DNA of 64,000 bases from Patescibacteria group bacterium. GTDB lineage: Bacteria; Patescibacteriota; Patescibacteriia; Buchananbacterales; UBA6539. Every line of letters begins with the position of its first letter. Position 1 is the stretch's first letter. Where the stretch lies: positions 38,552 to 102,551 of the forward strand of contig JBAZSB010000003.1 in the NCBI GenBank assembly GCA_041662625.1, given 5' to 3'. A program made the position numbers and the translations under genes. Shown here piece by piece: positions 2,336-63,289 of this stretch. Below the pieces are notes generated by a model that was not told the origin of the DNA, made no database searches, and worked only from the letters and a program-made list of their open reading frames with translations.

Positions 2336-5300
2336 ATGATAAAAGAAATTAAGCCAAAACTGAATTTGCCCGCCGCTACTCAGGAAGCTGACCAAACCAT
2401 TTCAAACAAATGGTTTTTAGCGTTTAAAAAAATCGTCACGGAAGTGGTTCTGGTGAGTATGGTTTTAAGTTTAATTACGCCAGCATTGATCTACCCGGAG
2501 CCGGCACGGGCATCTAATCCAACTGGTGCCCCGCCAGTGACCAAGCAATACCCGCCTAAGCCGACTGAAGTGCAAGTTCATGATGCTAGCGGGGTTAAAG
2601 TTATTCAAGATGAATCAGGTAAGACGCAAGCAGAAGTTAAAAAAGGGACTGATAATGTTACCGAAGCCCAAAAAAAAGATACCAAAGAGCTCACTAAATG
2701 GGAAGTTTTTAAGAAAAATTTGGATAAGATGTACCAGAAGTTAAGAAATGCTGTTAAAGTCGCGGCGGCTGAAGCTTTCAGTTATATGTTGAATACCTTT
2801 GCTTATGATACGGCGACTTGGCTGGCTTCTGGTGGTGAAGGCCAGCAGCCGATGTTTTTTACCGAAGATTGGGGTGAATATTTGACCAATTTGGTTGATA
2901 ACGCGGCTGGTACATTTTTAGAAAAGTTAGGTAACAATAGTTGGATCAATCTTAACCTTTGTACCCCTTCACTCGGCCTTAAAATTAGTATTGGTTTAGG
3001 CTTAGGTAATCTGCGGCGGCCTAAACAGCCAGATTGTACCGTCACTAAGATGATTAAAAATTGGAAGAGCTGGGCCGAGAGTCCTAATTTTTTGAGTCAA
3101 TTTGATGATATTTTTGATCCTAAGAGCAATGATATTGGCATTGCTGCGAAGGCTTTTGGTCTTTATTACCAAAAAGTCGAGGAAGATTGGTTAGCTGGTA
3201 TTTTTAGGCGCAAAGAAGGTGAAGGCTTCAAGTCAGTGGGTGATTCAATCGCCGATACCATTCTTACTCCCGGTACCGTAACAGCTGAAGGCGCTAAACA
3301 ATTAACGCGAACAGAAACCGGGTCAAAAGGGGAAGAAGTTAAAGTTGAGTATGGTAATATTTTCAATATCGCCATCGCGACTTTTATTAATACTTTATTG
3401 GGTAAACTTTTCGAACGATTATTTAAGAAAGGATTAGTCAGTTCAAAGGACGACAAGACCATTGATCTTTCCGGCCTTGGTAACCTTTTGGCCCGAGGGG
3501 CGACTAATCAGGATTTATATACAGGCGAGTCAGGTATTGAACTTTATAGCGGCGAAAAAGCGGCTCGATTACGCTTTCTTGATTTATTGCAAGCCGGTGC
3601 CAAGCAAGGTGGGGCTTATGATGTCTTAACCAAATTAGTTTATTGTTCTGATCCGGAGAATCCCGGACCGGATGAATGTGCGATCAAACAAGATTTTCGT
3701 TCAGCCATAGAAAGGAAATTAACTTTAAGAGAGGCAATTGATCAGGGTTTAATTGATGGCAATGCTCCTTTTGGTTTTATGGATTGGGATGCTAGTGCTC
3801 TTTACCGGGGTATATCTTATCGGAGCATTACGATTTTACGGACTTTTCGTGTGGTTCCAGTCGGCTGGGAAATTGCCGCCCAAACTATAAATAAATTTGA
3901 CCCTGGTAAGACTTATAGCTTGAATGATTTAATTGCTCGCTTCGCGGATGAAAGTTCAGATAATCTTTTCTATGGTTTAATTGACCCAGAATGGGTTTTA
4001 ACCTTGCCTGACCATTTTTGCAAATTGGAAGGTTACGGTTCGAAAGTTGTTTATGAAGGTGTAATTGGTGGTGATGATGCCAATAGTGATGGTGATTTTA
4101 CTGATGCTAACGATGTCCCACCCCAACGGACGGTTGGGCGGGCGGAATACTGCGCGGATTATCAAAGCTGTCTCCAAAAAGACGAGAGTGGTAATTGCCA
4201 GTATTATGGTTATTGTACTGAAGAAAGACGAATTTGGGATTTACAAGGTAAAGGCTGTAAACCCTACTTTAATACTTGTCAGACTTTTCAGCGCAGCGAT
4301 AATAAAGTTTTTAGTTTTTTGGAAAATACCTTGGACTTTAATGGCTGCAGCGCTGATAATGCCGGCTGCCAATGGTATTGTCAGGTCTTTAATCCTAGTA
4401 GTGATATTTGGACCTGTACTAATGAGCATATTGTAATTGATCCGGCCACCGGCGCAATTGATGCTGAACGTGTCTTAAAGCCCTGTAATTTGGCTGGCGG
4501 TTGTCTGGTTTCTACTAGTTGTGAAATAGCGGAAGGTGACAGTAGCTGTGTCGACAACACCAATGGCACTAATCTTTCTATTAGCAATTCTTGTAATTCC
4601 GGGTCAAGATGGTGGGTGGGTGATAAATGTATAATTAATCCTGCTGATGCTTTGTGTACGATTAAGCAGGGTGATGTGGGCTGTACTCTTACTGGCTGTG
4701 AATCGTTTGCTAATTTATTGCTTAATCCAAGTTTTGAAACCGCTGCTTCGCCTGGCAATCTAGCTGATAAATGGAGTACCAGTAGCGGTAGTTTAACTTA
4801 TTTTGAACGCGCAGCCGGGGCCAGTGAAAGAATCCATGCTGGGAAAAATAGTTTACGCTTTTTTAGCTACGGTTTATCTGTTAATGAAACAGTTAGTGCC
4901 GCTGAATTAGAACTACCAGTCGGCAATTATTATACTTTTTCCGGTTACGTTTATGATTATTTAAATGCCGGGGCAATTACTTTGGAAGTGGGAGGAAGTG
5001 GTGTTACCTCAGCTCAAAGCCGGGTGAGCACCAAAGGCAATGGCTGGCAGTTACTAACTTTTGATTTTTTAGTCGATAAGGAGAGTTCACCTGGCAGCGG
5101 CAAAGGAAAAGTTCAAGTAAAAATTATTGTTAGCGGTGATCAGGTCGGCGGGACAGCTTGGTTTGATGATTTCAGAATTACTCAAAGTTGTGTTGTGGAA
5201 AATGTCACTTTAACTTTGATTGGCACTGTTGGCGTCAATGAAAGTAAAATTCATCTAGATCGTGATGCCCAAAGTTGTGATGCCCAAAATGTCGGCTGTT

Positions 5301-8300
5301 CTGAATTAATCCGGACACTCCCGAATTTTGGCACTAATTTGGTGCCTAATTCCAGTTTTGAAGATTGGTCCGATCCTAGCGGCGTACCCCAAGGCTGGCA
5401 AACCGGTGAAAATTGGAACAGCGCTAACACTAGTTTCGAGCAGGCTGAAGGATATAGTGATAACTATAGTCTGAAATTGATTAAAAAAACCATTAGCACT
5501 AATGATGATAATTTTTCCCGAGATTTTGAAATTCCACTTTTTGCTTTAAAGCCCAATACTACCTATCGTGTTTCCTTTATGGCTAGGTCTGACCAAGATG
5601 CGGCTGCTAGTGACAGACTTTGGTATACAGAGATTTTATCAAACCATAATCCTGATTATTATTGCAGTTTGGATCAAGCTGAAAATTGTTACATCGGTAC
5701 GGTAGACGAAAATGAAGCACACTGTACCAGTCTTAATAAAGGGCATTGTGTATTTGATTATGATGGGGTGTTTATAGGCAGCCAGAGATTATTCCCACTC
5801 ACCGACGAGTGGCAGCAATTTGTTTCTGCTTCATTTACGACTCGTCACTTTAGTTATGATTTTAAATTTTCGATTTCGAGTCACTATACTAACCCAGCTA
5901 AACCACTTTATATCGATAATGTTCAAGTTGAAGAAGTGGAAACTAACAATGCGGCCGTTTCTAGTTACAGTGATTATGGCACGAAAAATTTAGTTTATCT
6001 TAAAAAACCGCCGGCCACTTTAGCCTGCCATGGCTATACTATTGACCGACCCAGCCCGGATGTTTTAACTGGTGTCAACCAAACCCAATGTAACGGAGAA
6101 AATATGGTCTGGCGGAAGTTCTGTGCGAATGCGACTGATGCCACTGACGCTGGTGAAGCTTGCACTAATAACGGTGAATGTGACAGCAACAGATGCAATC
6201 CCCAAGGCGCCAACGGCTGTGATGCTTCGGGTCAATTCTGTTGTCATTATACTGATTGGCCCGAGTGTTCTAATTTTGCCATGTACTGTCAGGAAGATGA
6301 AGTGGGCTGCGAACTTTACCGGCCTGTACTTGGCGGTCAGTCAATCCCCGCCAAAGTATCAATTCAAGATTATTGTCCGGCTGAATGCGTGGGTTACGAA
6401 GCTTATAAACAATCAACTAGTCATTTTGAAAGCCAGGAATCTTTGGAGTATTTTATTCCAAAAACAGCTAAAAGTTGTACGGCTAGCCAGGTTGGCTGTA
6501 CTGAATTTACCAATTTAGATGAGGTCGCTCGAGGTGGGGAAGGTAAAGAATATTATCAATATTTGCGTCAGTGCCGTAAGCCGGATCAGTCTGATGCCAA
6601 TTGCCAAAATTTTTACAATTGGCAGGGCTCGGATGAAACTGGTTACCAGTTGAAATTATATAATCTGACCGGCCAAACCCCAAGCGGGGGAGCACCCTTA
6701 GAGGTCAATACTGATCCGACGTTGTGGCCGACTTATTGGTGTGAGGTCAAAACCGATAGTGGTACTAATGGTCCCGATTGCTGTGATGGCCCAGAAGATT
6801 TAGCTGCTAATCCGTTCTGTAAAGAATTTTATGCCGCTAGTGGTGAGATTTATTATCGAATCTATGCCAATACCATCAGCTGCTCGGATGATTGTCATCC
6901 GTTGCGCCAGACGCGTTTGGAAAAAGATGAAAGTTTAGCTCGAGCTAATTGTGATAATACTAAGGGTACATGGGAGGGAGATGCCTGTGTTTATCACGCA
7001 ATACCGCAAGAAGGAACTCGTTGTTCAGCTAGCGCGGCTGGTTGCCGGGAATATCGCGGTAATGCGGGTGGCAATATTTTCACCGCTTTTGCCGATAATT
7101 TTGAATCCGGCGATACAGTTGGTTGGCGTTTTGGCGCCATCAGCAGCGAGGCTTTAAGTATTACCGGCCATTCAATCAAAACCCAATTACTCGGTTCTGA
7201 CACTGATAGTAATGGCACGATCGATACTTATGACAAAAGGGTAGTAACTTCTTGGGCCAGTTTATGGAAAGCCGGAACAACTGAATACATTAACGCTAAT
7301 ATTGTCTCCTGTACTGATACCAATTCAACCGACGTTCCATTTTGTGATACTACTCATACCAGTAATTGTTATGATCTGCAATTGGGTAAGTGTATTGCCA
7401 AGGAAACGGAGAATAATGAGACTTGCTACGTGGCTTTGGGTGAAAAAAGTTGTGGTGTAATGGGTAATGTTTTATTACCTAGTCGGACCTATCTGATTTC
7501 TTTCTGGGCCAAGAATGCCAGTGGGGTGGCAGATATCACCCTTGATTTGCTGGGAGCGGTTGATCCAGCGCCATTAGCTACTATCAGTCTCAGTCCCGAA
7601 TGGAATTATTATAGCCTCGGCCCATTTACTACTAGAGCTCAGCCTGATTTTGACTTAAGCGCCCGCTTGCGTTTCATAGGCTCAGTGAGAGACAGTAATC
7701 CCGATAGCCCTAGTCTTGTTGATTTTTATGTTGACAACGTGGAAATTAAAGAAGTGGCTGATTATGTTTATGTCATTAAGAATTCCTGGCAGACGCCAGC
7801 CAGTTGCGACACTAATCCTTGGACTTTGCCCCAGCCAACTCCCGCCCCGCAATTTATGCTTGGCTGTAAACAATATCTTGATTCTTATAGCCGGACCCAT
7901 AATTTAAAATCTTTTACCAATCTATGCCGCCTTGAGGCCGTTGGCTGTGAAGCTTTAATTGATACCTTTAATTTAACTTCACCTTTTGCCAAAGTCTTTA
8001 ATGAAAATGATGCTAATTCTGATGTCAGTATTCCGGCCGATCGGTTAGTTTATTTGGTCAATCGGACTAATTATCAGTGTCCTTCGACCAAGAAAGGCTG
8101 CCAAGCCGTTGGCCAGCCGACTATTAATGTTAATCAGGAAGCAGTTAATTATAAAACCGCTTATTTAATTAATGATCCCAATCAGTATAGTTCTTCCTTA
8201 TGTTCTAATCCTGAGGTGGGTTGTGAAGAATGGAGTACTGGCAATGGCTTTTCTTATTTCAAAGATCCGGGCCAACGGGTTTGTGAATACCGTTTAGCTC

Positions 8301-11300
8301 CAGGCCAAACTCAATCTAACTGGTTTAAATTTGGTTCAAGCGCTCAAACCGGCGATTGTCCTTTGGTTCAGCCATCCGTTGGTGTGCCACATCCGACTGA
8401 CAACTGGGTTGGCCTCTGTGCATCTGAAGCCAGCTCCTGTAACCAATTTATTGATCCGGTGAGTTTAATGAGTAAGAATTTAGTCTTCAATGCTGATTTC
8501 AAAACTAATGTGGTTACAACCGATACGCCTGATGTGCCGGACGGCTGGCAGGCTAATCTGACGACCGACGGTTTAGTTCAGTCTCTGAGCCTTCAACATG
8601 GTAATTTGTATACCTTGAGTTTTACCAGCAATAAGAATCTTTCTCTGGCAGATAATGATTTACATTTTGAAATTAGGAATTGTCCGCAAATTACTTCTTT
8701 TGATCATTCCTTAAATAACGTTTGTATTAATACTGTTACGGGGGAGCCGGTTCAGCCGCAGAAACTTTGTCAGAGTGATGACAATTGTGATGTGACTAAT
8801 CATCAAATTTGTTCGACTAATGTTTTGGTGATTTCACAAGGGGCTTATACCGGGGATAGTCGGACTTCCACTCAAATCGATAACTTTCCCCAAAATCAGA
8901 TCAGTTATTCTGGCAGAGTTTTTGTCACGCGTGATTGCAACGCTAAAATTATGATTACCAATGTGGGTGGGACGATTGAGAGTATTATTGGTACTGCCGC
9001 TAACAATTATACCGACGGACTGGTCAAAGAAGTAGCCTTAAGAAAAACCGACATTAATTATGTTTTAGCTGATTCGGTTGATAAGCGTAGTTGTAATGGC
9101 ATTGTTGATCCGGAAAGATATTGCGTTTTATTTAATGATCGCAGTGAGGTTAATTATAAATTGGGTGAAGATGACTTTAGTTACTTAGGTTTTGATGCTG
9201 ATGTGAGCGGTATTAATGTCAATAATGGTCTGCCGGTTTTACAATGCGCGGGTAACTGCGATTCTAATGCCGTTTTAAATGTTAGACCCGATCGAACCTG
9301 CGAAACCTGGCTGGCTTGTAACAGTTATGCCACCGTCGTTAACGCCGAAGGCGGGGAAGAAAGGCAGTGTTTAAACCTTGGCCTCTGTAATCTTTTGGCC
9401 GATGACGGTAGCTGTCTTAACTTTTTGGAAACTAGCCACGGCGACGCCCGAAAAGATTTTTATCAAGAACCCGAACAAATCCAAAATCTAAGCGGCTACA
9501 GTAAAGCAGGCTTGGAAGTCAGCGATACCTTTAATAAGACTATTTATGGCTATTACCCTTATGTGGAAATGTCCCAGGAAGGGGGAGCAACTAGTATTAC
9601 TAATAGCAACTTTGATTCAGTCTTTTCCGAAGGCAAAGAGCCGCTGGGTTGGGCCGAGTATGAATCTAAGGACAGCCAAGGTTGGCAAAATTTTAAATAT
9701 ACTATTGGTACTGATTTTAACTCGGCTTTGGAAGGTGGCTATTTGCAACTCAACACTTTTTATCAGGTTGTTTCCGAAGACGTTGATTTGGAAAAAGGAA
9801 CCAATTATATTTTGGGCGGCTGGATTAACACTTTGGAATTAAAGCATAACAACCTTAATGATTCCCAGCTTTTCACTCAGATTTGCTATAAACTTAATAA
9901 TCAGCTTGATTTAACTTGTCCGCCGGAATTGAAAGTTTTTGCTGGTTTAGGTTGGCAATATGTGACGGCGACATTCAACTCTGCTGGTAGCACTGCTTTG
10001 AAGATCGTACTGAAAAATAATGCCGGTGATATTTTGGCTTGTCGTGACGGCCATGAGGATACGGCGTGCGCCATCAGCGGTTATTCTTTGCTTGATGAGA
10101 TTTTATTAAAGCCAGTCTTAAAGGTAAAAAATCAGACTCCTGATAATTTGCGTGATTTTATTGCCCGGAGCTGCCGGCTTTATCCAGATTTTGATTCGTT
10201 AGCCTGTCAGTATTTTGAAGAAAATGTTTTGCATCGTGGTATTTTTGGCTACTGCCTGACGCAAGATCCAAATAATTTAAAACAGTGCCTCCAGTGGTGG
10301 CCAGTTGATCAGATTGGCGGCCAGTTAACGGATGAAATTTTGGCTTATAATATTCAAAGCCCGCTTTATTATTGTGTAGAGAAAGGTGAGAGACAAATCT
10401 TTAGTGAAGATACTGAATTCTCTTTTCTAGTTTCTGATTTTTCCGGTAATTTTACCGATGCTTATGGCCTCAGTGCCCAACTTGTACCTTTTGAAATATC
10501 TGAAGATTATCGGCCAGCTTTTCGTTACCCTTATGTCCGGCAATTTAGTGTTCGCCCCCAAATTTTCCCGCGTAATGATTGGCTTATTCCAGGTGTTGGT
10601 TTTAGACTCCTGGCTTTGGGCGATACGTTAATTGAAGTTAATATTTTTGGTGATCAGGGCCTTAAGAATGATCCTTTTGATTTGACCATTGGCCCAACTG
10701 GAAATAGAGGAATTTTGTTAGCTCCTTGGGGAGTACTAGTTGCGATCCCAGTTGAAATGCTTTACGCTTTTATTGCGGCTGATCATGGAGCATTAGATAT
10801 GGATGCACACTATATTGGAGAAATGAATGAAGGGATTGAGTCTTTGGGTCTTGGTGAAATTTTACCGGATAATGCTGTTGAACTTAATCTTTATTTCATC
10901 TGGTCTTGGCCTAACGGTATAAATCCGGAAAATATCGGGCGGGCCGAAAGTACCATCCAGACTCTGCGGCAAGTTGGTGATATTGCTAAGTTACTTTTAG
11001 CCCTTGGCGGGGCGAGTGCTAATTCAGCTCAACATGATGACGCCTGGGAAGAAGAAGGTGTTCCCGTATTTGGTATTTTGGAGGGAGAGGAGACGAGTCT
11101 CAATATTGTTTTTGGGTCGCTGGTTGGTGTCAAAATAGCGACAGAGCAGGATCCAATGTATAGTGGCATTGCTGAAGATCCGGTACCTGATATCCCGGGG
11201 GATATTTATGGTGGAATAGTAGTGATGGTGGAGGAAACTACCGATGGTGATTTGGCGCCGGGAATGAAACTTGATTTCATACCAAGTGAGGCCAAAGCCG

Positions 11301-12832
11301 GGTATTGCCAGAAACTAGTCCAGGTGGTGACTACGGCCGGCAATAACAAAGCTTGGACTGGTCGGGTTCAGTCGGGTTCTTCTTATATTTTATCTGACGC
11401 TAAAAGCCAAAAGAATTATTTCTTGTATTATGATCCATTTGACTATAATGAAATGCTTGAGGCGGCGGAAGAATGCTATGGTGTATGTAATGTCAATGGC
11501 CAATATTGTGAAATCCTTGGCCCAGGCAGTGAATGTCCTTGTCCAATGGGTGCGCCCCAGCAGATTGCTCAGGAGTGTATGAATGGCAAGTGTTATGATT
11601 GGAGTGGCAGTGATGCCAATACAATACCAACCAGTTATGACTGTACCGGTGATCCTCCTATTACCTTAAATGGAGAGTGTGATACTTATTTGCCTTTGAC
11701 TAATGAAACACCAACCGGAGATTGTATTTTAGATGCCACTTGCATTGGCGGCAAAAAAGAAGGTAATAGTTGCGAGACTGATGATGATTGCACTGATTAT
11801 AGTCCAGCTTGTTTTATCTACCAATCTTCTGATTTTCAGCCATTTGGTGCTATGGTTCCGCCGGCTGAAAGCCAATACCCAGAAAACTGGGATAGCCGAG
11901 TATCCACTTACCGCCAACCATTATTCTATGAACCGCCTTTGATTTCCCTGGCTGAGCCTTATCAGGCACGGATGGGTGAAGATCATACCGCTGACAGCTT
12001 AATGCGAATCTTTTTGAAGACTTATGGTGTCTGGAGCTGGGATGAAGGCGAATCGGATCTAGCAATTGATGACCATTATGAGCCTCTTGATCCTAATGAT
12101 CCTGATGATGCGGTTGATCTTCTGAATTATTCTTGGAATATTGTCAGCGACTGGGATAATACTTCTAAATTTCCGGATGCTGGTTATTGCACCAGTAATA
12201 TTCGGCCAGTTGAACCAACTCCGCCCACTTTGGATGATGTCACTCTTTGCCGCATTCGGCCAATAATTGATCCACTTAATATTTCGATTAATAATAGCCG
12301 CTCGACTGAGATTGGTAATGGTGATCCAGATGCTGTAATCAGCGGGGCCGGTTCGATTAAATTAAGTTTCACGGTCAAAGTTGATCCAAATCAATTGCCT
12401 ATTGGCTCTTACTCCGTAGATTGGGGCGACGGCGAGGTTTCTTCAGTTAATGGTGTTTCTTTGCGTGCCCGGCCCAACGTGGATAATCCTTTAACGTTGT
12501 ACCATGCGTATGATTTCTGGCAATTGCGCCGGCGCTGTAATGATGTAGGAGCATCTTGCACTGATGAGGCGGCCTGGGATGATGGCACCAGTATGCTTTA
12601 CTGCCCGGATGAAAATTCTTGCCGAATAAGATTAAGGATCAAAGTGCGGGATAACTGGAATGCTGAGACCTGCCTACCCGGGTTATCTGAAGTAAATTGT
12701 GCAGTTTCCCGGTGCAATACTTCACTAAGGACTTGTAATTATTCTAATCCTTGTCCCTCCGGCGAACTTTGTTTACCTGACAATAAATATATTCCGTTAT
12801 TAGATTATATCTTAGTCCAGCCAAGGCAATAA
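2336..12832 (+). CDS. giant (3498 aa) Cys-rich secreted/surface protein with multiple CBM4/9-like carbohydrate-binding-type modules
   Basis: Uninterrupted 10.5-kb ORF. N-terminal signal-anchor (VVLVSMVLSLITPALIYPEP). At least 4-5 modules start with N(P/S/A)SFE/NADFK...W...GW, typical of CBM_4_9. Cys-rich segments throughout. Confidence 0.7.
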   Translation: MIKEIKPKLNLPAATQEADQTISNKWFLAFKKIVTEVVLVSMVLSLITPALIYPEPARASNPTGAPPVTKQYPPKPTEVQVHDASGVKVIQDESGKTQAEVKKGTDNVTEAQKKDTKELTKWEVFKKNLDKMYQKLRNAVKVAAAEAFSYMLNTFAYDTATWLASGGEGQQPMFFTEDWGEYLTNLVDNAAGTFLEKLGNNSWINLNLCTPSLGLKISIGLGLGNLRRPKQPDCTVTKMIKNWKSWAESPNFLSQFDDIFDPKSNDIGIAAKAFGLYYQKVEEDWLAGIFRRKEGEGFKSVGDSIADTILTPGTVTAEGAKQLTRTETGSKGEEVKVEYGNIFNIAIATFINTLLGKLFERLFKKGLVSSKDDKTIDLSGLGNLLARGATNQDLYTGESGIELYSGEKAARLRFLDLLQAGAKQGGAYDVLTKLVYCSDPENPGPDECAIKQDFRSAIERKLTLREAIDQGLIDGNAPFGFMDWDASALYRGISYRSITILRTFRVVPVGWEIAAQTINKFDPGKTYSLNDLIARFADESSDNLFYGLIDPEWVLTLPDHFCKLEGYGSKVVYEGVIGGDDANSDGDFTDANDVPPQRTVGRAEYCADYQSCLQKDESGNCQYYGYCTEERRIWDLQGKGCKPYFNTCQTFQRSDNKVFSFLENTLDFNGCSADNAGCQWYCQVFNPSSDIWTCTNEHIVIDPATGAIDAERVLKPCNLAGGCLVSTSCEIAEGDSSCVDNTNGTNLSISNSCNSGSRWWVGDKCIINPADALCTIKQGDVGCTLTGCESFANLLLNPSFETAASPGNLADKWSTSSGSLTYFERAAGASERIHAGKNSLRFFSYGLSVNETVSAAELELPVGNYYTFSGYVYDYLNAGAITLEVGGSGVTSAQSRVSTKGNGWQLLTFDFLVDKESSPGSGKGKVQVKIIVSGDQVGGTAWFDDFRITQSCVVENVTLTLIGTVGVNESKIHLDRDAQSCDAQNVGCSELIRTLPNFGTNLVPNSSFEDWSDPSGVPQGWQTGENWNSANTSFEQAEGYSDNYSLKLIKKTISTNDDNFSRDFEIPLFALKPNTTYRVSFMARSDQDAAASDRLWYTEILSNHNPDYYCSLDQAENCYIGTVDENEAHCTSLNKGHCVFDYDGVFIGSQRLFPLTDEWQQFVSASFTTRHFSYDFKFSISSHYTNPAKPLYIDNVQVEEVETNNAAVSSYSDYGTKNLVYLKKPPATLACHGYTIDRPSPDVLTGVNQTQCNGENMVWRKFCANATDATDAGEACTNNGECDSNRCNPQGANGCDASGQFCCHYTDWPECSNFAMYCQEDEVGCELYRPVLGGQSIPAKVSIQDYCPAECVGYEAYKQSTSHFESQESLEYFIPKTAKSCTASQVGCTEFTNLDEVARGGEGKEYYQYLRQCRKPDQSDANCQNFYNWQGSDETGYQLKLYNLTGQTPSGGAPLEVNTDPTLWPTYWCEVKTDSGTNGPDCCDGPEDLAANPFCKEFYAASGEIYYRIYANTISCSDDCHPLRQTRLEKDESLARANCDNTKGTWEGDACVYHAIPQEGTRCSASAAGCREYRGNAGGNIFTAFADNFESGDTVGWRFGAISSEALSITGHSIKTQLLGSDTDSNGTIDTYDKRVVTSWASLWKAGTTEYINANIVSCTDTNSTDVPFCDTTHTSNCYDLQLGKCIAKETENNETCYVALGEKSCGVMGNVLLPSRTYLISFWAKNASGVADITLDLLGAVDPAPLATISLSPEWNYYSLGPFTTRAQPDFDLSARLRFIGSVRDSNPDSPSLVDFYVDNVEIKEVADYVYVIKNSWQTPASCDTNPWTLPQPTPAPQFMLGCKQYLDSYSRTHNLKSFTNLCRLEAVGCEALIDTFNLTSPFAKVFNENDANSDVSIPADRLVYLVNRTNYQCPSTKKGCQAVGQPTINVNQEAVNYKTAYLINDPNQYSSSLCSNPEVGCEEWSTGNGFSYFKDPGQRVCEYRLAPGQTQSNWFKFGSSAQTGDCPLVQPSVGVPHPTDNWVGLCASEASSCNQFIDPVSLMSKNLVFNADFKTNVVTTDTPDVPDGWQANLTTDGLVQSLSLQHGNLYTLSFTSNKNLSLADNDLHFEIRNCPQITSFDHSLNNVCINTVTGEPVQPQKLCQSDDNCDVTNHQICSTNVLVISQGAYTGDSRTSTQIDNFPQNQISYSGRVFVTRDCNAKIMITNVGGTIESIIGTAANNYTDGLVKEVALRKTDINYVLADSVDKRSCNGIVDPERYCVLFNDRSEVNYKLGEDDFSYLGFDADVSGINVNNGLPVLQCAGNCDSNAVLNVRPDRTCETWLACNSYATVVNAEGGEERQCLNLGLCNLLADDGSCLNFLETSHGDARKDFYQEPEQIQNLSGYSKAGLEVSDTFNKTIYGYYPYVEMSQEGGATSITNSNFDSVFSEGKEPLGWAEYESKDSQGWQNFKYTIGTDFNSALEGGYLQLNTFYQVVSEDVDLEKGTNYILGGWINTLELKHNNLNDSQLFTQICYKLNNQLDLTCPPELKVFAGLGWQYVTATFNSAGSTALKIVLKNNAGDILACRDGHEDTACAISGYSLLDEILLKPVLKVKNQTPDNLRDFIARSCRLYPDFDSLACQYFEENVLHRGIFGYCLTQDPNNLKQCLQWWPVDQIGGQLTDEILAYNIQSPLYYCVEKGERQIFSEDTEFSFLVSDFSGNFTDAYGLSAQLVPFEISEDYRPAFRYPYVRQFSVRPQIFPRNDWLIPGVGFRLLALGDTLIEVNIFGDQGLKNDPFDLTIGPTGNRGILLAPWGVLVAIPVEMLYAFIAADHGALDMDAHYIGEMNEGIESLGLGEILPDNAVELNLYFIWSWPNGINPENIGRAESTIQTLRQVGDIAKLLLALGGASANSAQHDDAWEEEGVPVFGILEGEETSLNIVFGSLVGVKIATEQDPMYSGIAEDPVPDIPGDIYGGIVVMVEETTDGDLAPGMKLDFIPSEAKAGYCQKLVQVVTTAGNNKAWTGRVQSGSSYILSDAKSQKNYFLYYDPFDYNEMLEAAEECYGVCNVNGQYCEILGPGSECPCPMGAPQQIAQECMNGKCYDWSGSDANTIPTSYDCTGDPPITLNGECDTYLPLTNETPTGDCILDATCIGGKKEGNSCETDDDCTDYSPACFIYQSSDFQPFGAMVPPAESQYPENWDSRVSTYRQPLFYEPPLISLAEPYQARMGEDHTADSLMRIFLKTYGVWSWDEGESDLAIDDHYEPLDPNDPDDAVDLLNYSWNIVSDWDNTSKFPDAGYCTSNIRPVEPTPPTLDDVTLCRIRPIIDPLNISINNSRSTEIGNGDPDAVISGAGSIKLSFTVKVDPNQLPIGSYSVDWGDGEVSSVNGVSLRARPNVDNPLTLYHAYDFWQLRRRCNDVGASCTDEAAWDDGTSMLYCPDENSCRIRLRIKVRDNWNAETCLPGLSEVNCAVSRCNTSLRTCNYSNPCPSGELCLPDNKYIPLLDYILVQPRQ

Positions 12833-28923: not shown

Positions 28924-30186
28924 TTATTTTAATCTTATATCGTAAAGTTTGCCGTCGGTTTTACTGTTGAAATAAAGATAACTACCGTCATCAGTGACTA
29001 ATATTTTTTCAATATTATGATTGCCGTTTGGTACAGCAATTTTTGATTTGAAGCCAGTTGCCAGATCAATTTTATAAATATCGCAAGGAGCAGTATCCAG
29101 ATCGCTTCGGAAGATGCCAGCACCTGTTGTAAGATTTTGTGGTACGGCGCAATAAACCGTGTCGTTATCCGCAAAGGTACATTTATCCGCCCAAGTTTCT
29201 AGTTTAAGACCGACTCGGTTTTGGCCAATATTGTCTCCTTGAGCCTCAACAATCCAAAGTGTCGGTTTATATTCGGAGGTGCTGGAGTAAACACTATAAA
29301 GCAAACGATCGCCAGCTGTTGACCATTGTCCCACGAAGCCACGGCCTTCAGTGACGGTGGTCTTAAGATTTTCATCATTTAGGCCAACAAAATATAAATT
29401 TTGGCGATCAAAGTCTTTATCTTCGCGGTAGATAGCAATAATTTGACCGCTTGGTGACCAATCAGAGTAAACAGTGGCATCTTTGTCACCTAGTAATTCA
29501 ATTTTTTCAGCTTCTGAACCATCCGCTTTGGCCACTGCCAGCCACCGATTTTCGGCATCGGTACCCATACTTTTTAAAACCAGCTGGTCGTTGTTGGGTG
29601 AGAAACTAAAGTCCTTCCAGTGATTTGGCAAAGTTATTTGTTGGTTGGTTGCAAAATCATAGACAATATTGGCGCCATCAGGATATTCCAAAACCGCCTT
29701 CTCTTTATTAGGTGACCAAGTAATATTTTCGACATCATAAAAAACTTGATCAGTCAGTGGTGTAGCCTTGCCATCAGGAGTAATTTTATAGAAAAGGCCA
29801 GTCGTTTTGTCATAATAAATGGCATTATTACCATCGGCGGCTAAAGTGGGTTGAAAAGCCGGATTACTGGTTAAAACCTTAGTTTCGGTTAAACCGCCAG
29901 TTGCTGTTTCAGAGATTGCCCCAGTGGTAGGAGAAATTGATGGGGGAGGACCAATATTAACATTGGTGCCACCGGGTAAAGCGCCATTAACATTTCCGTT
30001 TGTGGGAATATTTACATTAACTCCGGCCTCAGGTAGTCCGCCTGGTCCAACATTAATATTCGCATTTGGCCCTGGTACTTCCGGAACCGTTGGTTTGAGA
30101 AATAAAGCATACAAAAGCCAGCCAAAAATAATAACCGCCGCGAAAAAACCGATCAAAAGTAAGATTCTTTTCCAATTTAAAGGCAT
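28924..30186 (-). CDS. membrane-anchored beta-propeller protein (TolB/PD40-like repeats) with Gly/Asn/Pro-rich linker
   Basis: N-terminal TM helix, low-complexity PGPNANINVGPGGLP linker, repeated SP(D/N)G/SPNxxxLV motifs with W/Y-rich strands. Confidence 0.5.
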   Translation of the reverse strand: MPLNWKRILLLIGFFAAVIIFGWLLYALFLKPTVPEVPGPNANINVGPGGLPEAGVNVNIPTNGNVNGALPGGTNVNIGPPPSISPTTGAISETATGGLTETKVLTSNPAFQPTLAADGNNAIYYDKTTGLFYKITPDGKATPLTDQVFYDVENITWSPNKEKAVLEYPDGANIVYDFATNQQITLPNHWKDFSFSPNNDQLVLKSMGTDAENRWLAVAKADGSEAEKIELLGDKDATVYSDWSPSGQIIAIYREDKDFDRQNLYFVGLNDENLKTTVTEGRGFVGQWSTAGDRLLYSVYSSTSEYKPTLWIVEAQGDNIGQNRVGLKLETWADKCTFADNDTVYCAVPQNLTTGAGIFRSDLDTAPCDIYKIDLATGFKSKIAVPNGNHNIEKILVTDDGSYLYFNSKTDGKLYDIRLK

Positions 30187-30199
30187 AGGTTTATAACGT

Positions 30200-30335
30200 T
30201 GCTGCCCGAATACCGAGCGCTTTAGCGCGCGGATGAAGGGCAGTATGAGTAATAATCGTCGGCGGAGCCGACTCCTCTCGTTAAGAACCCACCCTGATAC
30301 CCCACTCTTTAGAGTGGGGTTGGGTTCATTATTAA
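30200..30335. ncRNA. GC-rich structured element between two minus-strand genes (candidate small RNA or 5' leader element)
   Basis: Local GC is much higher than the flanks. Nested hairpins ctgccc...gggcag, gtcggc-gga-gccgac, ccccactc-ttta-gagtgggg, and gaaccca...tgggttc closing. Confidence 0.3.
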
Positions 30336-30447
30336 GGGTTTCTATTTAGAAGCTTACTCAATTCACTATTTTTACTTCAATTTCGAGCCTAAACTGATGG
30401 TTTAGCTAGTATCATCGTCCTCAATAGAAATTATAGCATAAAATTGA

Positions 30448-59771: not shown

Positions 59772-61802
<2,031 letters not shown>

Positions 61803-62384
61803 GAAAAAACGGCGCCTCAAGAATAGATCTCTGATCTGGGAGTGTGTCCTCTGAGAGAGGAAACACATCATTGATCCATCTGAGTTCCGGCGCCGTCATC
61901 CGGCAGAATATGGGGGGAACGAGGGGGCGCGTTCCGCCGCCAAGGGGGCTCTGCCGAAAAAACCTGATGATACCTCCATAGAAATTCAGGTATAATAGTT
62001 TAAGGTACCAAGTTGACTTGAGTTTGTCAATTTTTTTATTATCCAAGTTTTATTTCAGCTAAAAAAAGAAGGCACATCTGCGGAGTTGAGTCAGCGTAGT
62101 CTTTGGCGATAACTCGCCGTTCGACATACTTGATTCAACGCGATGTGCCTTTCCTCTTGCTGGGTTGGAACCCCTGAACAGAAGGCGCGATTCTGCAACG
62201 GCGTGGTTAAACGCAACAAGAGGGACGCCTGAGGAGGGCGGGGAAAAAGATCCTTAGGGTGGCACCAGGCCAAACTTGTGAGGGGCCGTTACTGGGGGGC
62301 GCTCCAGATATGGCTCGCCGCCATGATTGGCCTGTGGGACCGGTCATTGGAAACCGTGTGCCACCCCGGGGAAAAGGAGCAAGT
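61803..62384. ncRNA. about 580-nt GC-rich, highly structured non-coding region (one or two structured RNAs) adjacent to tRNA-Gly; class unresolved
   Basis: GC content far above the surroundings. Nested long-range helices (acggcgcc/ggcgccgt, cggcag/ctgccg, gaaggcacatc/gatgtgcctt, ggcga-uaac-ucgcc). An AT-rich promoter-like insert (TTGACT...TATTAT) at 62023-62052 splits it into two blocks. The ORFs called here are short, overlapping and on both strands. Confidence 0.45.
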
Positions 62385-62461
62385 TGGGGCAGGAGAGAGG
62401 ATTCGAACCTCCGACATCTGGATTGGAAGTCCAGTACTCTAGCCAGTTGAGCTACTCCTGC
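62385..62461 (-). tRNA. tRNA-Gly (anticodon UCC), CCA encoded
   Basis: Reverse complement GCAGGAGTAGCTCAACTGGCTAGAGTACTGGACTTCCAATCCAGATGTCGGAGGTTCGAATCCTCTCTCCTGCCCCA; anticodon loop CTTCCAA. Confidence 0.8.
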
Positions 62462-62535
62462 TTTTGTTAGTAGAAACTCTAACAAACAGACAGAATCTTG
62501 TCAAACTTAAAAAATGCTTATATACTGAGTAAGTA

Positions 62536-62590
62536 AATCCAGTAAATCCAGTAAATCAAGCAGCTTGATTCACTGGATTTACTTGTTCGC
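62536..62590. promoter_or_regulatory. tandem taaatccag repeats plus imperfect 16-bp palindrome upstream of gatC
   Basis: aaatccagtaaatcaagc-agc-ttgattcactggattt. Confidence 0.3.
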
Positions 62591-62606
62591 TGTGTTTACT
62601 AATTCT

Positions 62607-62900
62607 ATGGCTTTATCCCAAAAAGACGTTGAACATATTGCTTTGCTTGCCCGGCTTGGGTTAAGTGAAGCGGAAAAGGAGAAATTTGCTAGTCAACTTT
62701 CTTCAATTTTAGATTATGTCGAGCAGCTGAAAGAAGTTAAGACAGAAGGCGTGGAGCCGACGGCTCAAGTCACTGGTTTGGAAAATGTGATGCGGCCTGA
62801 TGGAATGTTTACTTTGTCGAAACCCGAGATGGAAAAACTGGTCAAGCTGGCACCGGAGAGTGAAGATAACCTAGTGAAGACGAAATCAGTCTTTAATTGA
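62607..62900 (+). CDS. gatC: Glu-tRNA(Gln) amidotransferase subunit C
   Basis: MALSQKDVEHIALLARLGLSEAEKEKF... is the GatC signature. The upstream in-frame extension to 62565 overlaps the palindrome and is probably not translated. Confidence 0.75.
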   Translation: MALSQKDVEHIALLARLGLSEAEKEKFASQLSSILDYVEQLKEVKTEGVEPTAQVTGLENVMRPDGMFTLSKPEMEKLVKLAPESEDNLVKTKSVFN

Positions 62901-62932: not shown

Positions 62933-63289
62933 ATGCTATTTAGATTTAGAGAATTCAAAGTTTATCAAGATGCCCAAATTTTTAGAGCAGATATTTATAA
63001 ATTAACCAAAAAATTTCCTAAGGAGGAAACTTTCTGTCTTACCGCCCAGCTTAGAAGAGCTGTTATTTCAATAATTTTAAACATTGCTGAAGGCTCAAAC
63101 AGGCTATCAGATTTAGATTTTAGGCGTTTTTTAAATCTTTCCCTTACATCTCTAGAAGAAGTTGTCGCTTGCCTAGATATCGCTTTAGAAGAAAATTATA
63201 TAACTGAAGAAGAACGTTCGGAAAAATTAAAAGAAGCAGAAGTTTTGGGAAAACAGTTATTGGGTTTTATCAAGAAGCTAGAGAAGTAA
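62933..63289 (+). CDS. four-helix-bundle protein (IVS-associated family), inserted between gatC and gatA
   Basis: FKVYQDAQIF...LNIAEGSNR...; flanked by inverted repeats gctttgaac...gttcaaagc. Confidence 0.7.
   Translation: MLFRFREFKVYQDAQIFRADIYKLTKKFPKEETFCLTAQLRRAVISIILNIAEGSNRLSDLDFRRFLNLSLTSLEEVVACLDIALEENYITEEERSEKLKEAEVLGKQLLGFIKKLEK

Follow-up and report, generated by a model that had tools for sequence, protein, structure and literature searches.

The described systems that come closest to the locus treated here are intrinsic terminators, RNAs derived from the 3' external transcribed spacers (3' ETS) of tRNA transcripts, small regulatory RNAs of the RsaE/RoxS type in low-GC Gram-positives, the large ornate ROOL and GOLLD RNAs, and the palindromes of the repetitive extragenic palindromic (REP)/REPIN and IS200/IS605 kinds. 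The locus is the GC-rich spacer between ligA and a tRNA-Gly(UCC) gene, at positions 61803-62384 of a 64,000-nt stretch of DNA (the window) that comes from a Buchananbacteria-like metagenome-assembled genome of the Patescibacteria (Parcubacteria). This spacer is a real, non-coding and strongly folded locus, well beyond chance, and it is a chain of separate stem-loops, not one RNA. To our knowledge, the non-coding RNAs of this candidate phyla radiation (CPR) phylum are almost unknown.

Like intrinsic terminators, tandem ones included, two of the hairpins of the spacer (A1 and B1) have GC-closed stems followed by six to seven uridines between convergent units, and nothing in them but the stem base and U-tract is conserved across genomes. 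They differ from such terminators in being 85-88 nt long with branched or irregular interiors, whereas canonical loops have 3-8 nt, and termination here is predicted. As in 3'ETS-leuZ of Escherichia coli, a structured RNA lies between a tRNA and a predicted terminator, in the same orientation and potentially releasable by 3' processing, but the trailer here is much longer (~230 nt), GC-richer, more structured and unrelated in sequence. The unpaired C4-6 runs and the CCUCC loop predicted on the minus strand, upstream of the putative terminator, recall RNAs of the RsaE/RoxS type, a likeness that is compositional only, in a region with neither an Rfam match nor conservation. With ROOL and GOLLD the region has in common its size (~580 nt), a neighbouring tRNA and high predicted structure, but it is a modular hairpin chain, unconserved, with no model match and no prophage context. 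Finally, REP/REPIN and IS200/IS605 palindromes are resembled by the ~90-nt GC-rich extragenic hairpins between convergent genes and by a transposase in the spacer of one relative (L085), but the region is single-copy in the 64 kb, does not occur in the other loci, has no conserved flanking tetranucleotide and has no RAYT or TnpA in the window. The known kinds that fit are intrinsic terminators, a tRNA-linked trailer and a lineage-specific small RNA. Two features are unusual: the terminator stem length, because the window's ordinary terminators are short hairpins, and the persistence of hairpins at the locus despite rapid sequence turnover.

The first-pass annotation of this DNA, made from its letters, had described an ornate GC-rich block in AT-rich surroundings, and the composition bears this out: G+C is 56% across the spacer outside an AT-rich island and 40% in the window, or more precisely 56.4% in block A (61803-61965), 29.5% in the island (61966-62060) and 56.5% in block B (62061-62384), against 39.7% for the window. 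Its statement that only short, overlapping open reading frames (ORFs) occur here also held. None of six local ORFs reached a Pfam cut-off, the lone weak match being to DUF1579 (14.5 bits for a cut-off of 25.2, E 0.03). The features of the locus are as follows, the strand of the hairpin domains being the one that we favour.

61800-61802, plus strand: stop codon of ligA, the upstream neighbour of the GC-rich spacer
61803-62384: GC-rich non-coding spacer between ligA and tRNA-Gly
61809-61896 (part spans 61804-61896), minus strand: domain A1, an 88-nt hairpin with an 8-bp perfect closing stem
61901-61956, minus strand: domain A2, a 56-nt hairpin (CGGCAG/CUGCCG)
61957-62060, strand unassigned: AT-rich island of ~30% G+C, with a weak hairpin, a TTGAC/GTCAA hairpin and plus-strand promoter-like hexamers
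62068-62152 (part spans 62061-62152), minus strand: domain B1, an 85-nt hairpin with a 10-11 bp perfect closing stem
62153-62223, minus strand: domain B2, a 71-nt closed hairpin with arms 62153-66 and 62210-23
62226-62240, minus strand: small hairpin B2b, read CGCC-CUCCUCA-GGCG on that strand
62250-62376, minus strand: domain B3, 127 nt, beginning just downstream of the tRNA 3' end
62385-62461, minus strand: tRNA-Gly(UCC) with encoded CCA end, called by ARAGORN and by the Rfam tRNA model at 69 bits
62476-62504, minus strand: sigma-70-type promoter-like site TTGACA-17-TG-TAGAGT, 10/12 matches, with extended -10 TG
62498-62526, plus strand: conserved promoter-like site of gatC, back to back with that of tRNA-Gly
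62607, plus strand: start of gatC (Pfam GatC match)
3' of a bAvd-like gene, next in the local gene order: gatA

The structure claimed for the region is well founded. Folding energies were compared with those of dinucleotide shuffles (n=100 for block B): the folding energy of block B is -146.8 kcal/mol for the plus strand (z -5.5) and -132.3 kcal/mol for the minus strand (z -5.7), none of the 100 shuffles being as stable, and block A gives z-scores of -2.7 (plus) and -4.3 (minus). The helices named in the first-pass annotation exist, namely a perfect 8-bp helix ACGGCGCC/GGCGCCGT (61809-16 / 61889-96), a perfect 10-bp helix AAGGCACATC/GATGTGCCTT (62069-78 / 62142-51) and the GGAACG/CGTTCC pairing within 61916-61939. 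Further perfect inverted repeats are a 9-bp helix GGGTGGCAC/GTGCCACCC (62257-65 / 62358-66) and the pairs 62153-66 / 62210-23 and 62266-78 / 62322-34. When pieces are folded separately, six self-closed hairpin domains appear, split by A/T runs and the AT-rich island, and neither the folds nor the inverted-repeat search gave a credible long-range helix joining blocks A and B. The proposal of one ~580-nt ornate RNA of the ROOL/GOLLD type is not supported: the domains are independent, no helix links A to B, and no family matches.

Read on the minus strand, U6 (61809-61804) comes directly after A1 and abuts the ligA stop codon, and U7 (62067-62061) comes after B1. A2 carries three C5-6 runs on this strand, two of them predicted to be unpaired. 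The island has, for the minus strand, a weak AT hairpin (61962-61991) with U6 after it and, for the plus strand, the TTGAC/GTCAA hairpin with T7 after it, a possible terminator of ligA. The loop of B2b carries an anti-Shine-Dalgarno-like CCUCC with a predicted unpaired probability of 0.78 on the minus strand, and in B3 two hairpins, one of 69 nt (62266-62334) and one short, lie inside a perfect 9-bp closing stem (62257-65 / 62358-66), the domain having a minimum free energy of -65.1 kcal/mol (plus) or -58.4 kcal/mol (minus). Overall, five of the seven C-runs of the minus strand and the CCUCC motif are predicted to be mostly unpaired.

In keeping with the suggestion of an unclassified structured RNA, the Rfam covariance scan that the first-pass annotation had proposed matched no curated family. 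Rfam 15 was searched at the gathering score over the whole window, where it found three tRNAs and nothing else, and, with the filters relaxed, at E<=10 on 61600-62650 (1051 nt) and 62045-62390 (346 nt), where no RNase P, tmRNA, SRP, 6S, ROOL, GOLLD, HEARO, OLE, raiA or T-box RNA appeared; the sole match within the blocks at E<=10 was a meaningless one to a human long non-coding RNA model. ARAGORN, permuted forms included, found no tmRNA, in agreement with Rfam and with the earlier reader. CPR RNase P RNAs are divergent, escape default thresholds and need lowered ones (PMC8172020); those used here were already far under the gathering scores. The RNase P-like identity hinted at from local strings is not borne out: neither RF00010 nor RF00011 matched at the gathering score or at E<=10, the strings are short, out of order and missing from relatives, and, for what should be an essential, conserved single-copy gene, no alignable core is present in the spacers at the syntenic site in relatives whose LigA is 69-82% identical. 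Annotating this region as RNase P RNA, tmRNA or ROOL/GOLLD RNA is thus avoided.

Several other candidates were tried and rejected. Domain B2 can be drawn by eye as a minus-strand cloverleaf, yet as a tRNA pseudogene it gives no tRNA match at E<=10. Readings as 6S RNA, SRP RNA, Y RNA, integron attC or single-strand origin were rejected by eye on architecture or for want of a model match. A phage or mobile origin was pursued in two viral-contig scans with 14-15-mers, which gave chance coding-region matches only, and a REP/REPIN/MITE-type repeat is not supported by a self-search of the 64-kb window, in which neither the spacer region nor its modules has a second copy.

The adjacency of tRNA-Gly(UCC) noted in the first pass is real, with the correction that the gene lies on the minus strand. 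Likewise, the island does contain a promoter-like site, made of TTGACT (62013-18), an 18-nt spacer and TATTAT (62037-42) and not placed at 62023-62052 with 17 nt; the plus strand assumed for it is not supported by the tRNA and the U-tracts after A1 and B1, which point to the minus strand. A minus-strand promoter-like site lies ~15 nt upstream of tRNA-Gly, and L082 and L090 (two of the related loci described below) retain such a site without a tRNA. Downstream of this tRNA, A1 with its U6 and B1 with its U7 have on the minus strand the stem and U-tract of an intrinsic terminator. Their interiors or loops measure 63-72 nt, and a consensus terminator scan calls neither because these loops are far over 8 nt. 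In 26 cases in the spacers of relatives, A-rich sequence stands just 5' of long-range stems on the plus strand, which makes the minus strand U-rich on their 3' side; in 12 cases T-rich sequence stands 3' of stems, mostly AT-rich ones near the gatC end. The pattern of an A-run followed by a GC-rich stem is found in ~13-14 related genomes.

For the comparison, 165 ligA loci were gathered from GTDB genomes, JGI metagenomes and Logan/ENA contigs by LigA-anchored searches and exact-protein look-ups; they are cited by L-numbers where needed. The exact LigA was found in these collections only on the source contig, and the nearest other LigA is 81-82% identical. Relatives with 69-82% identical LigA keep the order ligA, spacer, gatC, with spacers of 250-3150 nt; those that were read are G+C-enriched (42-61% where measured), folded, and have the same plus-strand excess of G over C. 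Conservation of the helices, on which the first-pass annotation had staked its structured RNA, is confined to some closing stems, and the hairpin interiors are conserved in no related genome. Searches of blocks A and B against the 165 loci with nhmmer and blastn gave 29-nt stem matches only, with no wider alignment, and besides stem bases and A/U runs the alignable parts among the relatives' spacers are the tRNA genes and the gatC promoter region. Lost alignment alone is no argument against function, since synonymous sites are saturated at such divergence.

What is conserved lies at the base of the stems. Over the A-run and 5' arm of B1 (62050-62078), 26 of 29 nt agree with L003, in the hairpin that comes first downstream of ligA; the core AAAAAAAGAAGGCACATC is identical, and the interiors differ (63 nt versus ~170 nt). 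The closing stem and A-run of A1 (AAAAACGGCGCC...GGCGCCG) are common to L082 (AAAAACGGCGUC...GACGCCG), with one compensatory change from C-G to U-A, and the 3' arm and A-run of A2 (CTGCCGAAAAAAC, 13 nt) are common to L083. Among the relatives themselves, L001 and L082 both carry ...UGCCAGAGGCAAAAA, with a change from U-A to G-C, and L001 and L081 have GGUCGGAGCGG in common. Between L081 and L161, compared for constraint within a species, substitutions are too few for that purpose, and clustered. No k-mer core is found across 18 distinct spacers, which argues against a single host RNA with variable insertions. The motif GTGAGGG seemed enriched and was considered as such a core, yet its state varies between paired and unpaired from genome to genome.

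The tRNA genes in the relatives' spacers are all on the minus strand, and their identity varies by genome (Gly-UCC, Gly-GCC, Lys-CUU, Thr-GGU and Ala-GGC, and Phe-AAA and Ala-AGC as called); tRNA-like remnants are also present. The last two calls were made by ARAGORN on the minus strand of L133 (1657-1732 and 1753-1826). Anticodons AAA (Phe) and AGC (Ala) are unusual for bacteria. Minus-strand spacer tRNAs of four loci (L003:6708-6829, L083:5482-5605, L164 ~5865-5975 and L002 ~6530-6650) contain insertions of ~25-50 nt, far below the length of a group I intron, placed in the anticodon loop in L083 and L164 and apparently in the D-loop in L002, where ARAGORN and Rfam alike missed the gene. In L090, a tRNA-like element was seen by eye on the minus strand (~5130-5200), with a perfect 7-bp acceptor stem, a canonical T-arm GAAGG-UUCAAAC-CCUUC and no recognisable anticodon arm; it is uncalled by ARAGORN and gives no Rfam tRNA match at the gathering score. 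The spacer of L085 (79% LigA) holds an IS200-like Y1 transposase on the minus strand (5121-5570, PF01797, 1.3e-31), flanked by short perfect GC hairpins and more long GC-rich hairpins.

More distant genomes also carry RNA genes at this site. In five Magasanikbacteria-like loci (L014, L099, L107, L029 and L109, 57% LigA) the closed, branched hairpin domains of the ligA-gatC spacer number one to three and are ~100 nt long, and each is preceded by a minus-strand promoter-like site (TTGACA/T, 17-18 nt, TAnnAT-like hexamer). In L107 and L029, a minus-strand terminator follows each domain, the last being the bidirectional ligA terminator, and a conserved single-stranded tail CCACUU(C/A)CUAAAAAC comes after the domain. 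The closing stems of these RNAs co-vary, and none of them is in Rfam. The unannotated genes are as follows.

L107:5098-5199 and ~5370-5465, minus strand: small-RNA genes 'M1'/'M3'
L029:6100-6210 and ~6395-6490, minus strand: small-RNA genes 'M1'/'M3'
L099:5114-5201 and ~5245-5335, minus strand: small-RNA genes 'M1'/'M3'

L107 and L029 have LigA proteins 95% identical, ligA genes 90% identical in nucleotides and 4-fold degenerate sites 69% identical; their hairpin interiors are ~30-55% identical (30-column windows) and the promoters and terminators 90-97%. A 93% relative (L111) is without modules, and L028 has coding-looking sequence instead. These loci show that minus-strand non-coding RNA genes recur in the ligA-gatC spacer and that the structured parts of such genes are turned over more quickly than neutral sites. 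The link of the window to these RNAs is positional and architectural, homology not being demonstrated, because a covariance model (R1) built on three 'M1' members finds those three only and nothing in the window.

We tentatively read the spacer as part of a minus-strand tRNA-Gly unit with a structured trailer, terminated at B1, with A2 and A1 as a back-up or second unit, the trailer being a lineage-specific structured RNA and a possible regulator; we would place this reading slightly below an even chance. The promoter-like site at 62504-62476 would drive tRNA-Gly, and transcription would run on through the ~230-nt structured trailer (B3, B2b, B2) to stop at B1, whose 85-nt hairpin and U7 would act as a long-stem intrinsic terminator of the unit. 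Read-through, or a second weak unit, would cover A2 and halt at A1 (88-nt hairpin and U6) against the ligA stop codon. A1, B1 and the weak AT hairpin with its U6 would then be stacked intrinsic terminators that keep a strong tRNA promoter from antisense transcription of ligA. Moreover, processing of the tRNA 3' end could free the trailer as a stable structured RNA, whose exposed C-rich and CCUCC loops might pair with purine-rich ribosome-binding sites in the fashion of small regulatory RNAs. Minus-strand transcription with A1 and B1 as terminators is the firmer part and seems reasonably probable. Terminator-like ends and C-rich loops predicted to be unpaired are present, and a regulatory role of the trailer may be envisaged, with a probability much lower than that of the reading as a whole. 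Should this reading be correct, the region would show a reduced CPR genome insulating its essential ligA from a strong convergent tRNA promoter by unusually long stacked terminator hairpins, and would add an unclassified lineage-specific structured RNA to the phylum. A locus that always has GC-rich hairpins, the sequence of which is quickly replaced, also offers a testable case of the birth and replacement of structured RNA genes.

Several observations weigh against this minus-strand unit. The terminator scan missed both A1 and B1. On the plus strand, block B gains ~14 kcal/mol in stability and has 12 G-U pairs, against 4 on the minus strand, and two plus-strand G-U pairs in B1 turn into A-C mismatches when the minus strand is read. 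The island's promoter-like sites are on the plus strand, and no minus-strand promoter there reaches the scan threshold. L081, L005 and L089 have no minus-strand promoter-like site placed to drive the hairpins, those called (9/12 matches) lying only at or beyond the gatC start. The suggested regulatory role draws on loop composition only, and there is no covariation support for B3, B2 and A2 as functional RNAs, as the hairpin interiors are unconserved. We have weighed the conservation of U-tract plus stem more heavily than the energy asymmetry, and the minus strand is therefore favoured, though unproven.

The energy asymmetry is one argument for a plus-strand small RNA, in which the island promoter TTGACT-18-TATTAT (62013-62042) would drive an RNA of 330-420 nt made of B1, B2 and B3 and ending at or beyond the antisense tRNA (acceptor stem, then UUUUGUU), block A being the 3' untranslated region of ligA or a divergent minus-strand RNA. 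The plus-strand location of the promoter-like sites, the threefold number of G-U pairs and the purine- and A-rich linkers on this strand agree with it. However, no plus-strand terminator lies ahead of the tRNA, transcription would collide head-on with that of tRNA-Gly, and the TTGACT and TTGTCA hexamers double as arms of the small hairpin with T7. In L003, moreover, the stem matching B1 stands directly after the ligA stop codon with no promoter, and no plus-strand role is known for A-runs that precede stems. GC skew is uninformative, being the genome's background strand skew: third codon positions in genes of both strands have the same plus-strand G excess. We regard a plus-strand RNA as distinctly unlikely. 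Less improbable, although still unlikely, is that the spacer has no dedicated RNA function beyond termination and insulation, and is a turnover hotspot of tRNA remnants and hairpin DNA from REP/REPIN elements or IS200/IS605 ends, in which high G+C and pairing last only since stable hairpins are tolerated or selfishly maintained. The differing and interrupted tRNAs and tRNA-like remnants of relatives, the transposase in L085, the presence, absence or replacement of modules among relatives with 93-95% identical LigA, the lack of a core motif in 18 spacers and the cloverleaf that can be drawn for B2 all suit a hotspot. A multicopy element would be expected to leave copies, but no module recurs in the 64 kb or the 165 related loci, the window has no transposase close to the region, and B2 is not tRNA-like by covariance model; the compensatory changes in closing stems point to selection on pairing, and non-coding DNA of an AT-rich reduced genome is expected to drift AT-rich. 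A further possibility, to which we give little credence, is that the ligA-gatC spacer of many Parcubacteria is a dedicated cassette locus for highly structured minus-strand RNAs, with atypical tRNAs (interrupted or with odd anticodons) beside them, the region in the window being this genome's version. Promoters, stem bases and terminators would be conserved in it, and the structured interiors would be replaced or outpace synonymous sites, as between L107 and L029. Such a pattern would imply diversifying selection, and a role in an arms race would be conceivable, for example that of decoys or immunity RNAs aimed at factors of phage or host.

The two remaining explanations call on known RNA classes. 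A single large ornate RNA (ROOL/GOLLD-like), or a highly diverged RNase P RNA, tmRNA, 6S or SRP RNA, would account for the size of ~580 nt, the tRNA adjacency, the GC-richness and the short RNase P-like strings, and the escape of CPR RNase P RNAs from default thresholds (PMC8172020) could explain a missed match. It is very improbable and largely refuted: no family matches even at E<=10 on 346 nt, ARAGORN sees no tmRNA, the structure is modular and split by the AT-rich island, and nothing is alignable at the syntenic site, where core k-mers are also absent. No housekeeping RNA can reside at the locus, because the spacer ahead of gatC is only ~200 nt long in L004 and the spacer of L091 (63% LigA) only 33 nt. 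The other explanation is a T-box-like leader of gatCAB on the plus strand. In some Firmicutes, gatCAB is T-box-regulated. The likeness of UUAGGGUGGCACCAGG (62253-62268) to the T-box sequence AANNAGGGUGGNACCGCG is readable from the sequence, and the hairpins have leader-like order and sizes, B1, B2 and B2b standing for Stems I, II and IIA/B. We consider this leader refuted and hardly credible at all. The Rfam model does not match at E<=10, GGGUGGCAC pairs over its whole length with GUGCCACCC, at a distance of 92 nt, in the 9-bp long-range helix, with no antiterminator bulge, no terminator follows the motif, the antisense tRNA gene and the conserved gatC promoter stand between it and gatC, and relatives lack it.

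Some minor observations concern the neighbourhood of the spacer and the rest of the window. Upstream of gatC, a long AT-rich near-perfect hairpin of GTAAATCCA-like repeats (62535-62590, plus strand) separates the promoter-like site from the start of the gene and gives weak nonsense Rfam matches only; L082 and L090 align to this promoter and leader stretch, and AT-rich repeats or hairpins occupy that place in other relatives. Further on, a 23S-rRNA-IVP/bAvd-like four-helix-bundle gene (62933-63289, plus strand, PF05635, 2e-31) splits gatC from gatA, which directly follows gatC in the relatives checked (L002, L004, L162), and no reverse transcriptase is found near this gene. Upstream of a gene on the minus strand (28924-30186), a second GC-enriched non-coding stretch (30187-30447, ~55% G+C at 30194-30326) contains several GC hairpins; Rfam gives no match to it at the gathering score, and it is a possible leader or regulatory RNA. 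Finally, a single ORF of 3498 aa (2336-12832, plus strand) is followed by one of 1176 aa, giant proteins of this kind being typical of CPR genomes.

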